From assembly GCA_012690745.1 (NCBI GenBank), contig GCA_012690745.1_4086.2: a stretch of DNA of 64,000 nt; one strand, given 5' to 3'. The notes below the pieces were generated by a model. It did not search any database. It saw nothing but the letters and a program-made list of their open reading frames with translations, and was not told where the DNA came from. Positions 1-9,693 of this stretch are shown in pieces. The position numbers and the translations under genes were made by a program. Source of the stretch: a phage. Position 1 is the first letter of the stretch. Each line of letters opens with the position of its first letter.

Positions 1-119
1 TACTAATACATATTTCGGCAGAGTATGCTACAATAATTGTATTCAAATGACTTTAAACGCAAATGAAGATGGTAACAGTACTAACCTGTACTCCGGCATC
101 ATAGGTATACTATTCCTGT

Positions 120-308
120 ATGAATAATTACAAAGACTTCTATTTGAATACACTACCTACTGTACTTTCTCTAAGTGCTCAATGTAAAATCCCGCTGGAT
201 AATGCTTACGCCAGATATAGCTATTCCATAACTGTTAATCGATGTATAGAGAATCATTGCAGTACTAACCAGTACTATAACATAATCCTACTTATATTCA
301 GGTACTAA
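120..308 (+). CDS. hypothetical small protein (tandem repeat unit 1)
   Basis: Track ORF; paralogous to 310..492 and 508..699; no clear RBS. Confidence 0.3.
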   Translation: MNNYKDFYLNTLPTVLSLSAQCKIPLDNAYARYSYSITVNRCIENHCSTNQYYNIILLIFRY

Positions 309-309
309 T

Positions 310-492
310 ATGAATAAAGAACATAAAGAATTCTATATACGAAAACTAACATTCGTCCCCGTAAGAATATATAAAGAATGCGACCCAAGATTATACCTAT
401 GGCACTTCAATGAGTGCATAAAAGATTCTATATACCCTAAGAACTATAAAGAACAATTGTGCTCAGTACTAACACTAGTACTATCATATTAA
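310..492 (+). CDS. hypothetical small protein (tandem repeat unit 2)
   Basis: Track ORF; paralog of neighbours. Confidence 0.3.
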   Translation: MNKEHKEFYIRKLTFVPVRIYKECDPRLYLWHFNECIKDSIYPKNYKEQLCSVLTLVLSY

Positions 493-507
493 TTAATAGA
501 GAATACT

Positions 508-699
508 ATGTATAAAAACTTCTATATAAGTAAACTAAAAGAAAATGAACAAGTATGGATTAGATCTATAATTCCACTGGCATTTAATAGATATGCATTT
601 AACAGATGTACCGAGATTGCTATAGACCCTTATAATATTAAAGAGAATGTACAGTATAATCAGTACTACTATATCTTAATGCTTATATATAGAAAGTAA
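508..699 (+). CDS. hypothetical small protein (tandem repeat unit 3)
   Basis: Track ORF; paralog of neighbours. Confidence 0.3.
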   Translation: MYKNFYISKLKENEQVWIRSIIPLAFNRYAFNRCTEIAIDPYNIKENVQYNQYYYILMLIYRK

Positions 700-1096
700 T
701 TAAACACAAGTAGACAGGGGAAGCTCCTAGTGAACAACCTTTATGTACAGGCGAATTGTTAAAATTCAGCCTGGACAAATGCGATCACTAGGATTCTCCC
801 CAGGCTAAACCTCGTAATCATAGGTAGTCATAAGTAATCATATATAAACATTTATATGAGCACCGTAGAATCACAGAATGATTATATATGATTCAGTACT
901 GATTAGTATAGACAAGATTGCTCAAGAATGCACGGAAATGTGTGTGAATGATTCAGTACTGATATGCCACTAAGTAGGCAGAGGAAGTCTGCCGTACTTT
1001 GTAGTTTCCAAGCTCCTTTTCCATTTTGCAAATTACATCAAATGTAATCAAAAGTAATCACGCAATGATTAGTACTGAATTATTACTTTCATCTTA

Positions 1097-1141
1097 ATTT
1101 CAATTACCCCTTTACCCTTCGGGGTAAAATTCAATTACCCC
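1097..1141. repeat. Direct repeat ttcaattacccct x2 flanking a small cccttcgggg hairpin
   Basis: Read directly from sequence. Confidence 0.5.
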
Positions 1142-1337
1142 TTGAGGCTCCAGCAAAAAGTTGGTTAGTACTCCATCCTAAATCTGGATCGTAAAAATTT
1201 TGGAGTACCTATGAAATAAAAGTTGGATCTTCGAAAGTTGAAATTTACGTTGGGACGTTTATGATTTGTGGGATATAATGATGATTGTAGTCGGGTAGTT
1301 CTCAAGAATATCAGTACTGAAAGATGAAAGAAAGTTA

Positions 1338-1365
1338 TTGACATTATGATTCAGTACTGTATAAT
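1338..1365 (+). promoter_or_regulatory. sigma70-like promoter
   Basis: -35 TTGACA 1338-1343, 16-nt spacer, -10 TATAAT 1360-1365; no ORF over 25 codons follows. Confidence 0.5.
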
Positions 1366-1548
1366 GTTCTACATAGAGAGATGAGTTGCTGCGAACAATT
1401 CATTTACTCTACCTCCTGTCGTGAGACAGTACAGAAAAGATAGTTCCTCCTGTGGTGGTACATCTTTTTGAACCTCATATGAAAATCGTAATAACAGTAC
1501 TGATATTAACAGAATGGTATTAGTACTGATTTTAATCTAAAGCATTAT

Positions 1549-1568
1549 GCCACCAGCACAAGCTGGTG
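1549..1568. repeat. Perfect 8-bp-stem hairpin ccaccagc-acaa-gctggtgg
   Basis: Perfect inverted repeat; same arms recur at 7908-7915 / 7970-7977. Confidence 0.6.
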
Positions 1569-1823
1569 GATTCCCTCTAACAGTATTCAGTACTACATGA
1601 TGGTCTTCATCCTCCTAGGGTAACATAGTGAGGGCTATGATGGCAGTACTGAATACTCCCTTTCAAAAGATAGATCTATGGTATAGTACTGACGGATTTT
1701 GGGTGTAGTTACCCTGGATGGATTTTGGGCGTAGATATGTCTAGCCCTCCAGAAGTCTGGAAGTAAAGATGGCTATCCATCTAGACGGCTAAACGGCTAG
1801 ATTTCTGGATGGCTAGACGTTTG

Positions 1824-1923
1824 GACGGCTAAACGGCTAGATGGTTACACGTCTGGAAGTATAGACGGCTAGACGGCTAAACGGCTAGATGGTTACACGT
1901 CTGGAAGTATAGACGGCTAAATC
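1824..1923. repeat. Tandem 40-bp direct repeats (two full copies 1824-1863 and 1872-1911 plus partial copies), ACGGCTA-rich
   Basis: gacggctaaacggctagatggttacacgtctggaagtata occurs twice identically; degenerate copies extend upstream to about 1777. Confidence 0.7.
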
Positions 1924-2540
1924 AAAATTTTATTTTGTTTTTTCCAATAGTTCCCCTACCGCGTCGGGGTAAATTCCCCAGCAGTATCGAACGTTAGATT
2001 TTTCTGAATCTGGAATCATTATCTTATAAACTGGGGGCAATGTCAACGGCCTGGACGGATATTTTTAAAATTTTTTTCAGTACTGAATTTTGGGCGTAAC
2101 TATGCACCCGGTGGGCTTGAGTCTTTCTCGACTTGATGGAACTATTATACAGTACTGAAAAAATAAAGCAATACCCTGGAAGCAAAAAAGTTTTAATTAA
2201 TTTGCTTGCTATCCTGGGCCGGACTATGGTACTATATTTCAGTACTGAGAAAGTGCGTTTACCTGCTAGGGTGCGGGAGTGTATCCTTTTTTTATATCTT
2301 GAATTTTGGGCGTAATTCCGCACCCTCTGGGGTTTCCGCTTTCTCACGTCTATGTAGTAATTATACGCTTTTTCAGGATCAAGTCAATACCTAAAAACAA
2401 AATAATTGAAAATAATTTAACGCGTTTAAACGGCCTGTAAAGCCCTGGAATGATTGGAATGGTGCAAATGTATAGCTTATGTGTATTAATGCGTTAGAAT
2501 GCGTCTGAGGCCGTTTTATGGGGTGTAGTAGTGATTTGGT

Positions 2541-2632
2541 TGATTCAGTACTGAATAATAGTACTCCTATATAGAAAGATAGTTCCCCTGGATTGATTCA
2601 GTACTGAATAATAGTACTCCTATATAGAAAGA
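2541..2632. repeat. 39-bp perfect direct repeat x2 (2541-2579, 2594-2632)
   Basis: tgattcagtactgaataatagtactcctatatagaaaga repeated; contains two AGTACT sites. Confidence 0.7.
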
Positions 2633-2663
2633 AAACTATTTTAAAAGTATTTGTAGAAAGTAC

Positions 2664-2691
2664 TTGCACCGTACTGATAAAAGCGTATAAT
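2664..2691 (+). promoter_or_regulatory. sigma70-like early promoter with downstream 5' hairpin (2705-2723)
   Basis: -35 TTGCAC 2664-2669, -10 TATAAT 2686-2691; hairpin agcgggaa-cac-ttcccgct. Confidence 0.7.
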
Positions 2692-2746
2692 GTTTTACAT
2701 CGAGAGCGGGAACACTTCCCGCTACACTTTAAGAGAGATTAATACG

Positions 2747-3109
2747 ATGGCAACTCAAATCACCAAAATTATTGCTAACCTGGTTAACTTCCGCGACGAG
2801 ATGAAAGATCTTCCGGCGGCGACGGTTAAAACTCACATTGACGCATACCGCGAACTGATTAAAATGCTGCCGCTTAAGCGTGAACAATACGCCGCTACCG
2901 TGATGCTTGATGCGATGATCCATAAGATGATCGCCAGTGATTTGACGATGGTTTATCAGTATATGGGCGAAAATTTCGCGGTGTGTAGTAAGCCAGTACC
3001 AGGGATGGCAACAACTGAGGAATTGCACGGCTTAAACTTAAAACAAGATGCATGGGATAATATGCCTCGTTTCCTGGTATGGGCTGACAGTGGCAAAATT
3101 TACAAATAA
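2747..3109 (+). CDS. hypothetical protein
   Basis: Track ORF 2690..3109 trimmed to ATG 2747 (track ATG lies in the -10 TATAATG); protein starts MATQITK. Confidence 0.6.
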   Translation: MATQITKIIANLVNFRDEMKDLPAATVKTHIDAYRELIKMLPLKREQYAATVMLDAMIHKMIASDLTMVYQYMGENFAVCSKPVPGMATTEELHGLNLKQDAWDNMPRFLVWADSGKIYK

Positions 3110-3123
3110 GTTTAATAAAGTAC

Positions 3124-3151
3124 TTGCAAACTATGTTTAATGGCGTATAAT
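3124..3151 (+). promoter_or_regulatory. sigma70-like early promoter with 5' hairpin (3163-3182)
   Basis: -35 TTGCAA 3124-3129, -10 TATAAT 3146-3151. Confidence 0.7.
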
Positions 3152-3204
3152 GTTTTACATCAGGTGGGGAATAGTTCCCCACTATATAAGAGGATTAAAA
3201 AAAA

Positions 3205-3444
3205 ATGGCTAAATCAAAAATGTTCTTAGGTCACAAAAACAAAACTCATTGGAATGTAAGCCTGTGGATTAATAACGATGAGGGATTGTATCGGTTGGCC
3301 CTGGACTTTATTGCCGCCAATACTAATCGCAATGATGCGGCCCGTCATATGATGTTATTTTTAGAACAGACTGGACAAGATAAAACACCGGACGGATTCA
3401 AATATAGCACTACTGCGATCCGTGCGGCGATGGTTGGAATGTAA
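3205..3444 (+). CDS. hypothetical protein
   Basis: Track ORF; RBS GAGGA upstream. Confidence 0.6.
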   Translation: MAKSKMFLGHKNKTHWNVSLWINNDEGLYRLALDFIAANTNRNDAARHMMLFLEQTGQDKTPDGFKYSTTAIRAAMVGM

Positions 3445-3464
3445 TAGAATTTATTTAAAGTACT

Positions 3465-3493
3465 ATCATTTTTTTGCGATAGTACTTTATAAT
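3465..3493 (+). promoter_or_regulatory. promoter-like element (good -10, poor -35)
   Basis: -10 TATAAT 3488-3493; flanks resemble the promoter at 15935. Confidence 0.3.
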
Positions 3494-3530
3494 AGTGTTT
3501 TATTCATACACCAACGATAAGGGCAACAGC

Positions 3531-3797
3531 ATGAATATTAAGTATTTTGCGACGCGTGAACAAGCTCGGATCGCCGCACGCCAGGACGGGGCAACGTTTA
3601 AAGATATGGGAGCGGGATCGGCAAGTGGTAAACGTTGGGCCATTGTAAAGCGTAGTACGGCCAGATCATTACAGTACTGGTTAGCGGCCTTAAAAAGTCC
3701 CGATAGTGTATCGCGTCGAGTGGTAGAAATAAAGCTCGACCGAAAGGGCAACCGCGTGACCGTGTACCGTACTAAAAAGATTGCAGTACTTGAATAA
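3531..3797 (+). CDS. hypothetical protein (paralog of 16012..16407)
   Basis: Trimmed from track 3495; shares FATREQARIAAR...TFKDMG...RW and DRKGNRVTVY with 16012..16407. Confidence 0.6.
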   Translation: MNIKYFATREQARIAARQDGATFKDMGAGSASGKRWAIVKRSTARSLQYWLAALKSPDSVSRRVVEIKLDRKGNRVTVYRTKKIAVLE

Positions 3798-3804
3798 AAA
3801 GTAC

Positions 3805-3832
3805 TTGCAAACTATGTTTAAAGGCGTATAAT
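3805..3832 (+). promoter_or_regulatory. sigma70-like early promoter with 5' hairpin
   Basis: -35 TTGCAA 3805-3810, -10 TATAAT 3827-3832; hairpin gagcgggaactcttcccgc follows. Confidence 0.7.
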
Positions 3833-3884
3833 GTTTTACATCGAGAGCGGGAACTCTTCCCGCCTATAACCTGGAGTAATAAAA

Positions 3885-4115
3885 ATGACTAATATGTATA
3901 TGACTGAAGTTAAAACCGTAAAAGATACTACCACGAATAAAACTACTTACTTACAGCGGATCTGTGGTGTATGGCAACGTATCAGCAAATCAAAGTACTT
4001 TAAATTAACATCATATGCAAACCGTTCTGATTCATTCAGTACTGAAATAAAAGGTAATAAAGTACACCAATACGGCACTTATTATTATTACAGCCTGGAC
4101 GCGATTGCAGTATAA
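3885..4115 (+). CDS. hypothetical protein
   Basis: Track ORF; RBS GGAG. Confidence 0.55.
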   Translation: MTNMYMTEVKTVKDTTTNKTTYLQRICGVWQRISKSKYFKLTSYANRSDSFSTEIKGNKVHQYGTYYYYSLDAIAV

Positions 4116-9099: not shown

Positions 9100-9369
9100 A
9101 TGAAAAATATCAGTACTTTAATCGATGCAGGTACACATGTTCGTCGGTCTATGGTTGCAACCAGTTCTACAAAACAAGTACCAAGCGGTTATCTTGTATT
9201 TGTGCACGATGGAAAACTCCTGGAACGTTCAATCAATTTTGATGTTAAAAACAATTGCCGTTTTATTATCTTTAAGCGTGAACAATATAAAATTGATTTG
9301 CCAGCGAAGCCCATTAGCGGGGCGTACAGCGTACAATCATTGTTTGAGCGTCAACCTTACACCTATTAA
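9100..9369 (+). CDS. hypothetical protein
   Basis: Track ORF; RBS AAGAGGA. Confidence 0.55.
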   Translation: MKNISTLIDAGTHVRRSMVATSSTKQVPSGYLVFVHDGKLLERSINFDVKNNCRFIIFKREQYKIDLPAKPISGAYSVQSLFERQPYTY

Positions 9370-9420: not shown

Positions 9421-9693
9421 ATGAACGTTAATCAAGTACTGAATGAGATCGAAAGCATCATTAAACCGATGAAGCGTACTGATGCTATGTTAACACCGGA
9501 AGAATGCCGCCTTTATGAGCGTTACAGCGTCGAACAAGTCCAGGCAATGGCTATGGCTACCCCAGCCGTTTCACCGCCTGAGAATGCGTTACAGGACGTT
9601 ACAGGGGATTATATCATTAATCCAGTACTAGGGAAGATGACTGCAATCACCGAAGATCAAAAAGACTACTTAAGCCAGTACTTAAAAGGTTAA
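9421..9693 (+). CDS. hypothetical protein
   Basis: Track ORF; contains 20-bp segment identical to intergenic 12047-12066. Confidence 0.55.
   Translation: MNVNQVLNEIESIIKPMKRTDAMLTPEECRLYERYSVEQVQAMAMATPAVSPPENALQDVTGDYIINPVLGKMTAITEDQKDYLSQYLKG

Follow-up and report, generated by a model that had tools for sequence, protein, structure and literature searches.

An array of MetJ operator-like 8-bp repeats in the terminal repeat of an Asteriusvirus-like jumbo coliphage

A 64,000-nucleotide stretch of phage DNA (contig GCA_012690745.1_4086.2 of NCBI GenBank assembly GCA_012690745.1; hereafter the window) carries a tandem array of 8-bp units that match the operator of MetJ, the SAM-dependent methionine repressor of the host, and that lie inside the direct terminal repeat (DTR) of the genome. 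Judging from this match, host MetJ probably binds the array in vivo. We are evenly balanced on the fuller reading, according to which the array is a very long run of met boxes that MetJ–SAM would coat, giving a cis-acting block beside the DTR boundary. Two features define the repeat itself:

1735–1918, no strand assigned: met-box-like array of 23 head-to-tail 8-bp units in a single register
1824–1919, no strand assigned: perfect tandem duplication of 48 bp (6 units), 1824–1871 being exactly equal to 1872–1919

Read after a 2-base shift, the array includes the units AGACGGCT, AAACGGCT, AGATGGTT, ACACGTCT and GGAAGTAT, and its core consists of 19 consecutive boxes (1767–1918). Tandem Repeats Finder reported repeats over ~1755–1921, with a period of 8 bp (17.4 copies, 1781–1919) and one of 48 bp (3.4 copies, score 183); a 40-bp period was also called. 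The initial annotation had taken 40 bp as the basic unit, based on two exact copies at 1824–1863 and 1872–1911. These copies are indeed identical and form a portion of the perfect 48-bp duplication, but the true unit is 8 bp long and recurs 23 times in one register. The duplication is missing from four close relatives (E9.1, G17, Ec-M-J and fEgEco12), and the 40/48-bp periodicity is a recent duplication particular to the window phage. Likewise, the heptamer ACGGCTA, previously put at about ten copies, is found eight times in 1785–1919 and once in the remaining ~64 kb. The expectation for the whole window is ~2.6 copies, and a count of nine was reached by none of 100 shuffles (0/100).

MetJ operators are built from two or more tandem 8-bp boxes with the consensus AGACGTCT (PMC4239095; PMC3413123). 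Five E. coli K-12 met promoter regions (metB/J, metF, metE/R, metA and metC) served for calibration, and a scan with the tandem consensus put the known operator at the top in each of them. The E. coli boxes are closely similar to the phage units, with GGACGTCT AAACGGAT AGATGTGC in the metF operator, AGAAGTTT AGATGTCC AGATGTAT in that of metB/J, and GGACGGCT among the boxes of metE/R. Using a matrix of our own, derived from 19 genuine E. coli met boxes, we found the highest tandem scores for 2, 4, 8 and 16 units in the 64 kb all within 1727–1920. The 16-unit score was 118 bits at the array versus -35 for the next best place in the window, and 23 of the 23 array units scored positive. The published matrix of Augustus and Spicer (PMC3228920), for which a box must reach at least one quarter of the consensus score and a site at least the consensus score of 12.58 bits in total, returned 19 consecutive passing boxes (1767–1918) with a total of 141.7 bits. 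By the same matrix, the E. coli met operators comprise 2–4 boxes and 19–31 bits, and elsewhere in the window there is a single minimal 2-box site. The mean box score of the array (7.46 bits) compares with ~6–9.5 bits in natural operators.

The match extends to composition and phase. Base frequencies of the distinct units, tabulated by position, correlate with those of the published met-box matrix at r = 0.91, and do so in one register only. The arrays of the jumbo phages contain 11–14 distinct units each and give r = 0.79–0.96 in one register as against r ≤ 0.12 in the remaining seven. For CBB, pEa_SNUABM_12 and a T5-like contig, the distinct units have exactly AGACGTCT as their consensus. The array thus has in common with E. 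coli operators the 8-bp AGACGTCT unit, a strict head-to-tail arrangement that runs through all 23 units without a spacer, (C/T)T-(A/G)G junctions and degenerate boxes. MetJ is moreover encoded by the host, E. coli metJ having been retrieved. The differences lie in length (19–23 boxes in a non-coding phage terminal repeat versus 2–4), in box position 6, which is biased to G in the array (AGACGGCT) where the consensus has T, and in context: known operators sit in the promoters of methionine-related genes, as a rule no more than ~75 bp from the start codon, whereas the phage array has no methionine gene nearby and overlaps no promoter. TrpR also binds CTAG-centred sites 8 bp apart; it was rejected as a candidate ligand, as its ACTAGT core is poorly matched compared with 6–7 of 8 positions for the met box.

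The published thresholds are permissive, with ~8% of random 8-bp tandem repeats passing in their best register and ~1% attaining the mean score of the array. They are also passed by pure microsatellites, for example (ATACATTT)n, in contigs of giant viruses and bacteria. When bacterial genomes were scanned with a degenerate 5-box pattern, simple 8-bp microsatellites dominated among the matches listed; viruses showed equal microsatellite noise, yet real arrays were recovered from them. What sets the phage arrays apart from microsatellites is the diversity of their units, their varied compositions around a common consensus, and their host range. Unit make-up differs from phage to phage, with AGAAGTCT in Pontus, AGATGTTT/AGACGGCT in AhSzq-1 and AGACGTCC/AGATGCTT in PH1, and the central consensus is shared.

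The window derives from a jumbo coliphage that is Asteriusvirus-like and falls in the 121Q/PBECO4/G17 group, its best match being vB_EcoM_E9.1 (97.7% identity across window positions 1–4000); a T5-like phage, also considered as its identity, was dropped given this match. The ends of the fEgEco12, Ec-M-J and E9.1 records map onto the window and delimit the terminus as follows:

961–975, plus strand: left-terminus junction GATATGCCACTA/AGT, a conserved candidate terminase cleavage context
973–21677, plus strand: DTR of ~20.7 kb

The fEgEco12 and Ec-M-J records open at window position 973 (60/60 bases identical), and position 21677 corresponds both to the right end of E9.1 and to the DTR boundary of fEgEco12, the termini of which were determined by PhageTerm and restriction digests and enclose a DTR of 20,993 bp (PMC13070987). 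Because the ends of these relatives map there, we take 973 as the physical left end and 973–21677 as the DTR. Measured from the mapped end, the array lies 763–946 bp inside the genome and therefore within the DTR. Relatives' records that hold both terminal repeats contain it at record position ~720 and at a second place; no second comparable array was found at the right DTR boundary. The 15-mer at 961–975 is present in identical form in Klebsiella phage KP13-7 (genus Alcyoneusvirus). The array is embedded in a ~2-kb non-coding stretch (700–2690), with a run of small (~60-aa) genes on its 5′ side and, on its 3′ side, an extended series of small genes on the plus strand, several of them preceded by a near-consensus promoter. 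No methionine gene is found near the array, the nearest gene beginning at 2690, and a search for a clear promoter overlapping the array found none. The non-coding stretch contains several further elements:

1338–1365, plus strand: sigma-70 promoter of perfect consensus (TTGACA-16-TATAAT), facing the array
1549–1568, plus strand: strong hairpin CCACCAGC-ACAA-GCTGGTGG, between this promoter and the array
1693–1739, plus strand: two GGATTTTGGG(C/T)GTAG repeats directly upstream of the array
1919–1941, plus strand: A+T-rich T-tract spacer, 3′ of the final met box
1942–1988, plus strand: TTCCAATAGTTCCCCTACCGCG (1942–1963), hairpin GGGG-TAAATT-CCCC (1966–1979) and GCAGTATC (1981–1988)
2018–2046, minus strand: promoter-like TTGACA-17-GATAAT, directed leftwards to the array from ~90 bp away and not kept in CBB

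The promoter at 1338–1365 is situated 365 bp from the left end and ~400 bp upstream of the array, and similar promoters occur in fEgEco12 and CBB. In G17, the counterpart of the 1549–1568 hairpin is called a terminator by ARNOLD, and in fEgEco12 the loop of this hairpin is inverted. More copies of the GGATTTTGGG(C/T)GTAG type are located at 2084–2104 and 2300–2320. ATTTTGG stands upstream of the array in the majority of the jumbo phages, among them CBB, GAP32 and pEa12, and before the equivalent slot in KP13-7. Downstream of the array, the jumbo relatives show the order T-rich spacer, TTCCAWTAGYTCCCCTWCCGCG and small hairpin; the element at 1942–1988 is kept across Asteriusvirus, Mimasvirus and Eneladusvirus, and the stem of its hairpin exhibits compensatory changes (CTGG/CCAG, CTAG/CTAG, GGGG/CCCC).

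Comparing repeat number with relatives, a check proposed at the outset, showed that the array is retained and that its length differs by multiples of 8 bp. Five Asteriusvirus sequences including the window have 12–19 passing boxes and differ by whole 8-bp units only (window +6, fEgEco12 +2, G17 -1), indels within the array always being multiples of 8 bp. Beyond this genus, in-register arrays are found 650–850 bp from the start of the record in the Mimasvirus phages CBB and XbC2 and the Eneladusvirus phages pEa_SNUABM_12 and BF; that of GAP32 is at 3466–3585 in a record that opens elsewhere. The array thus lies ~650–950 bp from independently determined left ends in several jumbo genera, the end of CBB having been derived from read depth and that of XbC2 from PhageTerm. 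Across genera, the slot is kept though the flanks are only ~62% identical per alignment column.

Runs of 9–34 boxes recur in jumbo, T5-like, T7-like and other phages, making up about six lineages. A BLAST search with the array region matched T5-like Demerecviridae, with 28 consecutive units in Aeromonas phage AhSzq-1 and 15 in Vibrio phage Pontus. In both, the array is placed in the region matching T5 Repeat Region 3, 3′ of DnaA boxes and directly before a CCTGCGCC motif (the counterpart of the T5 7.9% nick), after which come GTGCAAATCCGACA-type repeats and, further downstream, ATTTTGGG-type repeats; no met-box array was found in T5 itself. In a complete T5-like IMG/VR contig of 118.5 kb, two copies of the array, at 9.62 and 117.70 kb, point to a DTR of ~10.46 kb whose boundary is 0.77 kb from the array. 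The IMG/VR contig L051 had no relative in the phage collection. Among T7-like phages, the Escherichia phages PGT2 and phiKT (Autographiviridae, Ermolevavirus) have nine units each; in PGT2 these occupy bases 38–109 of an inferred 260-bp terminal repeat, and the final units, CTAGACGT TTAGACGG CTAAATGG, differ hardly at all from those that close the CBB array. A shorter run of ~6 units is found roughly 60–120 bp from the right end of the Klebsiella Drulisvirus KPV811. Arrays exceeding 20 units are present in both Vibrio phage D164 (46 kb) and Pseudoalteromonas phage PH1 (42.7 kb).

The host range of these phages follows that of the repressor closely. MetJ occurs in Enterobacterales, Vibrionales, Aeromonadales and Alteromonadales, and Xanthomonas lacks it (PMC4239095). 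In the second of two BLAST surveys, which covered 50,697 phage records, the host order possesses MetJ for 81 of 82 matching records, and the MetJ-order host genera of both surveys are Escherichia, Salmonella, Klebsiella, Yersinia, Erwinia, Pectobacterium, Serratia, Cronobacter, Vibrio, Aeromonas and Pseudoalteromonas. The single exception in both is the array-bearing XbC2, whose reported host is Xanthomonas; its genome has 37.5% G+C as against ~65% for that host, and its nearest relatives are enterobacterial phages. XaC1, a distant relative from Xanthomonas, retains other leader motifs and has no array. Possession of MetJ by the host does not entail an array, since T5 and KP13-7 have MetJ-positive hosts, yet no met-box array. 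In KP13-7, a cluster of Fur-box-like repeats replaces the met boxes in the equivalent slot, bounded by ATTTTGG and TTCCATTAG (+769 and +931, respectively, counted from the homologous left-end junction); the best of these sites agrees with GATAATGATAATCATTATC at 16 of 19 positions. The T5 'DRC' repeats at the corresponding place are Fur-box-like as well (15/19).

The repeats were originally interpreted as iterons bound by an initiator or as binding sites of a terminase small subunit. That they form a protein-binding repeat near a genome end still stands as a prediction, but the spacer-less 8-bp unit fits neither assignment. Iterons would be expected as ~17–22-bp helix-phased repeats beside an initiator gene, and such an arrangement was not found. 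DnaA boxes (TTWTNCACA) are absent from window positions 1–3000, the A+T-rich stretch near the array amounts to a 23-bp T-rich tract on its 3′ side, and GC skew climbs steadily through the window with no turn and no origin signal. The gene search that had been proposed as a check likewise came back empty: of the 56 open reading frames in and around the DTR, none matched an initiator family or, by Pfam and PHROG, the ribbon-helix-helix, MetJ, Rep or terminase families. For terminase sites, the position near the genome-end cut (763–946 bp from the left end) would be suitable, but such sites should be specific to one terminase lineage, and this unit type, which matches the MetJ operator, is also found in T5-like phages, Autographiviridae and others. 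The packaging and replication proteins of the array-bearing families are not known to be related, which makes a lineage-specific terminase small subunit or initiator unlikely and a host factor the economical explanation; MetJ is the host factor whose operator the array matches in sequence.

Sites for some phage-encoded protein, be it a terminase small subunit, an initiator or a ribbon-helix-helix protein with MetJ-like specificity, would nevertheless suit an array less than 1 kb from the physical genome end, with an A+T-rich stretch and a conserved element on its 3′ side. Proteins of the ribbon-helix-helix type commonly bind contiguous short repeats, so the array would fit one of them, and screening for phage binding proteins covered 64 kb of a ~350-kb genome. 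Set against this are the like arrays in families whose terminases and replication systems are not known to be related, the lack of any ribbon-helix-helix or Rep protein among the 56 open reading frames and of DnaA boxes, a spacing of 8 bp that is unlike the helical phasing of iterons, and a right DTR boundary with no second array. In addition, when all plus-strand open reading frames of the window were compared by tblastn with the first-step regions of T5-likes and the early region of PGT2, none had a counterpart in both; with E. coli MetJ as the tblastn query, the matches in the whole set of phage records were bacterial contaminants only. We consider a phage-encoded ligand quite unlikely. An element acting as RNA, in which the transcribed repeat folds or serves as protein-binding RNA, appears exceedingly improbable. 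It could draw on the consensus promoter 400 bp upstream and on a predicted plus-strand fold far better than that of shuffles (z = -7.1); the minus strand, however, folds well too (z = -3.5), and the strong z-scores arise because the units are quasi-palindromic. A terminator-like hairpin intervenes between promoter and array, Rfam and tRNA scans of the array region found nothing, and an RNA role would account neither for the strict 8-bp register of the DNA nor for its match to the operator.

Two further readings accept the array as DNA and dispute its purpose. As a functionless 8-bp minisatellite with a chance likeness to met boxes and copy changes driven by slippage, it would account for the variable copy number among close relatives and for the recent 48-bp duplication in the window phage; many genomes hold 8-bp microsatellites that pass loose thresholds, and the ~1% chance that a random unit scores as high is not negligible. 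Such a repeat would hardly persist at a constant place across genera despite ~62% flank identity, nor consist of 11–14 distinct units that are all box-like with the consensus AGACGTCT, nor recur with differing unit compositions in about six lineages, nearly all with MetJ-bearing hosts, and we hold this reading to be very improbable. A decoy deserves more weight, even if we judge it on the whole to be rather unlikely. Here, MetJ would be drawn off its host operators by the array, with methionine and SAM synthesis (e.g. metK, metE) derepressed as a result, two arrays per genome taking up ~40 dimers and the gain supplying phage protein synthesis and SAM-dependent methyltransferases. Every result of the MetJ match applies equally to this reading, the number of boxes far exceeds the needs of an operator, the DTR location doubles the copies, and SAM-dependent methyltransferases are encoded by PGT2, phiKT and XbC2. 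A decoy, however, would be free in its location, yet the slot is constant across genera, and three or more phage families have the array inside terminal repeats; the Fur-like boxes in the KP13-7 slot would have a different metabolic effect. T5-type phages, moreover, destroy host DNA early, so a decoy would be of little use to them.

A cis-acting role is favoured over the decoy because the slot is conserved between genera, because three or more families have their arrays inside terminal repeats or close to them, and because both the KP13-7 slot and the corresponding place in T5, with its DRC repeats, carry Fur-box-like sequences. Such interchangeable arrays for host repressors (MetJ, possibly Fur, DnaA) suggest that it is protein-coated DNA that matters, and not methionine regulation. 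Granted that MetJ binds, we would give the bound array a chance at or slightly below even of acting as a cis block rather than as a decoy.

In mechanistic terms, ~20 MetJ dimers with the co-repressor SAM would bind cooperatively side by side once the DNA has entered the cell, and would form a continuous protein coat over ~185 bp. This coat may serve as a cis barrier or landmark next to the DTR boundary, at which RNA polymerase coming from the 1338–1365 promoter, replication forks, or the machinery of DNA entry or packaging would be stalled or insulated. In E. coli, replication forks are blocked by repressor–operator complexes arranged in tandem, three being sufficient in vitro (Payne et al. 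2006, PMC1636447). The engineered lacO/tetO roadblocks of this kind are tandem repressor–operator complexes that behave as proposed for the phage array, while differing from it in being artificial, in using other repressors and in having spacers between the operators (PMC1636447).

The closest natural parallel is T5 Repeat Region 3, where Davison places the injection stop signal (iss) and DnaA boxes (bioRxiv 10.1101/866236). Both regions are non-coding, repeat-dense and contained in a long terminal repeat within ~1 kb of its boundary, and both offer sites for host proteins, namely DnaA boxes in T5 and predicted MetJ boxes in the window phage; the short motifs ATTTTGGG and GCGTTAGAATGCG are common to the two. 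On the other hand, T5 has no met-box array, and window positions 1–3000 contain neither DnaA boxes nor the paired DnaA boxes of the T5-type IRD′/IRC′. The array is also next to the left DTR boundary in jumbo phages and next to the right one in T5-likes as conventionally drawn; the analogy with T5 therefore requires the jumbo phage to inject its right end first. Two-step injection is known for T5, not for Rak2-like phages. Other parallels are looser. Phage lambda carries an IHF site in cosB, in its packaging region, and recruits a host DNA-binding protein near the site of end formation, as is predicted for the window phage; this is a single bending site less than ~100 bp from the cut, compared with ~20 contiguous putative repressor sites 0.8 kb from the end. 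In T7, the heptamer arrays SRL and SRR, which Dunn and Studier are said to have described in 1983, reportedly flank the terminal repeat. Like the nine met boxes of PGT2 and phiKT, they are tandem short repeats next to or inside a terminal repeat, but they are heptamers of other sequence with no known host ligand. By analogy with T5, one might speculate that filaments of host repressors (MetJ, Fur-like or DnaA arrays) are the physical basis of a phage injection stop or gate, and that Rak2-like phages deliver their DNA in two steps; we view this as a long shot. By the same doubtful extension, the DTR would be the first-step DNA, and pause or release would be coupled to the SAM or iron status of the host.

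No mention of the array was found in the genome papers on array-bearing phages, and the conserved 1.7-kb non-coding leader of Rak2-like jumbo phages in which it resides is not discussed in theirs. The accessible part of Davison's analysis of the T5 region (10.1101/866236) discusses DnaA boxes, and no mention of MetJ was found in it; a full-text literature search combining MetJ with phage terms returned nothing relevant. What is new here is the occurrence of predicted MetJ-type units in a far longer, phage-borne array within a terminal repeat and without a methionine gene.

If MetJ binds these repeats, they would constitute a natural array of ~20–30 contiguous repressor sites, as compared with 2–4 in five E. 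coli operators, and the SAM status of the host may influence infection. The MetJ reading also makes the puzzling repeat regions in terminal repeats of the T5 and T7 type testable. If it is true, unrelated phages would recruit a metabolic repressor of their host to the ends of their genomes.

The slot that the met-box array (predicted host MetJ sites at 1735-1918) occupies in the window is taken, in the Klebsiella phage KP13-7 (Alcyoneusvirus; OP617745.1), by a cluster of Fur-box-like repeats at 1720-1860 and 2065-2083, the top sites of which match GATAATGATAATCATTATC at 16/19 positions. The 'DRC'/palindrome E-I repeats in the injection-stop region of T5 (9468-9637) are likewise Fur-box-like (15/19), a likeness of which we found no mention in the accessible portion of Davison's T5 analysis (bioRxiv 10.1101/866236). 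Met boxes themselves recur in an exceptional setting: the Xanthomonas phage XbC2 (OP292654.1) carries such an array at 648-775, and Xanthomonas lacks MetJ. XbC2 has a G+C content of 37.5%, compared with ~65% in its reported host, and its similarity to phages of enterobacteria exceeds 50%; either its array is a relic or its natural host is not the reported one.

The sequences around the array and in the early region contain the following features of the window:

961-975, left-end junction sequence, GATATGCCACTA/AGT with CAGTACT before it, spanning the physical left end
1338-1365, perfect sigma-70 promoter
1549-1568, strong hairpin ~180 nt past this promoter, annotated as a terminator in the Asteriusvirus relative G17
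1942-1988, conserved element directly after the array, comprising TTCCAWTAGYTCCCCTWCCGCG, a hairpin and GCAGWATC
3205-3444, gene of 79 aa, the second downstream of the non-coding leader

The element that follows the array is strongly conserved, being present also in XbC2 and in the sequences L004, L010 and L011, and the stem changes in its hairpin are compensatory. Its C-rich core (..GCG) resembles the CCC(C)TCCTGCGCC found after the array in T5-like phages, which is the counterpart of the T5 7.9% nick site CCCTGCGC. Four copies of GRATTTTGGGYGTA also flank the array (two at 1693-1739 and one each at 2084-2104 and 2300-2320). A long hairpin at 2268-2326, AGGGTGCGG...CCGCACCCT, carries one of them in its loop. 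This hairpin is kept in CBB (with a 15-bp stem), XaC1 and KP13-7, and in the last of these a Fur-like box replaces GRATTTTGGGYGTA in the loop. In T5, too, repeats (ATTTTGGGG, direct repeat A) lie near the terminal-repeat boundary. A further motif, GCGTTAGAATGCG-N-CT-N-AGG-N-CGTTTTA, is common to the leader (2491-2520) and T5 (9270-9300), where it is located directly before DnaA boxes; the T5-like phages AhSzq-1 and Pontus have similar TAGAGCGTT repeats.

At the left end, the junction sequence has an identical copy in KP13-7, which suggests, from sequence, a conserved terminase cutting context common to Asteriusvirus and Alcyoneusvirus. The stretch between the promoter and the hairpin at 1549-1568, the loop of which is inverted in fEgEco12, is ORF-free, and the pair could yield a short non-coding RNA from the first DNA near this end. 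AGTACT occurs 255 times in the 64-kb window, frequently within CAGTACTG or, as AAAGTACTTGCAA, immediately 5′ of early-type promoters; it is densest at 1-22000 and sparser at 22-26 kb and 30-36 kb, immediately past the terminal repeat.

Directly before the terminal repeat (1-700 and further upstream in the sequences L001 and L002) lies a tandem series of ~20 probably paralogous genes, each encoding ~60 aa, three of which match one PHROG family; upstream of them is an opposite-strand block of RCC1-like repeat genes. Within the repeat (973-21677), the small genes include those for a zinc-finger protein of the DksA/TraR type, an acetyltransferase of the GNAT family and a ParE-like toxin domain, a content consistent with a host-takeover early region. 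At the protein level, the 79-aa gene is 82% identical to one of the early genes (2147-2359) of PGT2, a T7-like phage, and its DNA is ~82-87% identical to genes of Asteriusvirus and Phapecoctavirus relatives; judged by sequence, these close matches indicate that early-region modules are exchanged among coliphages.
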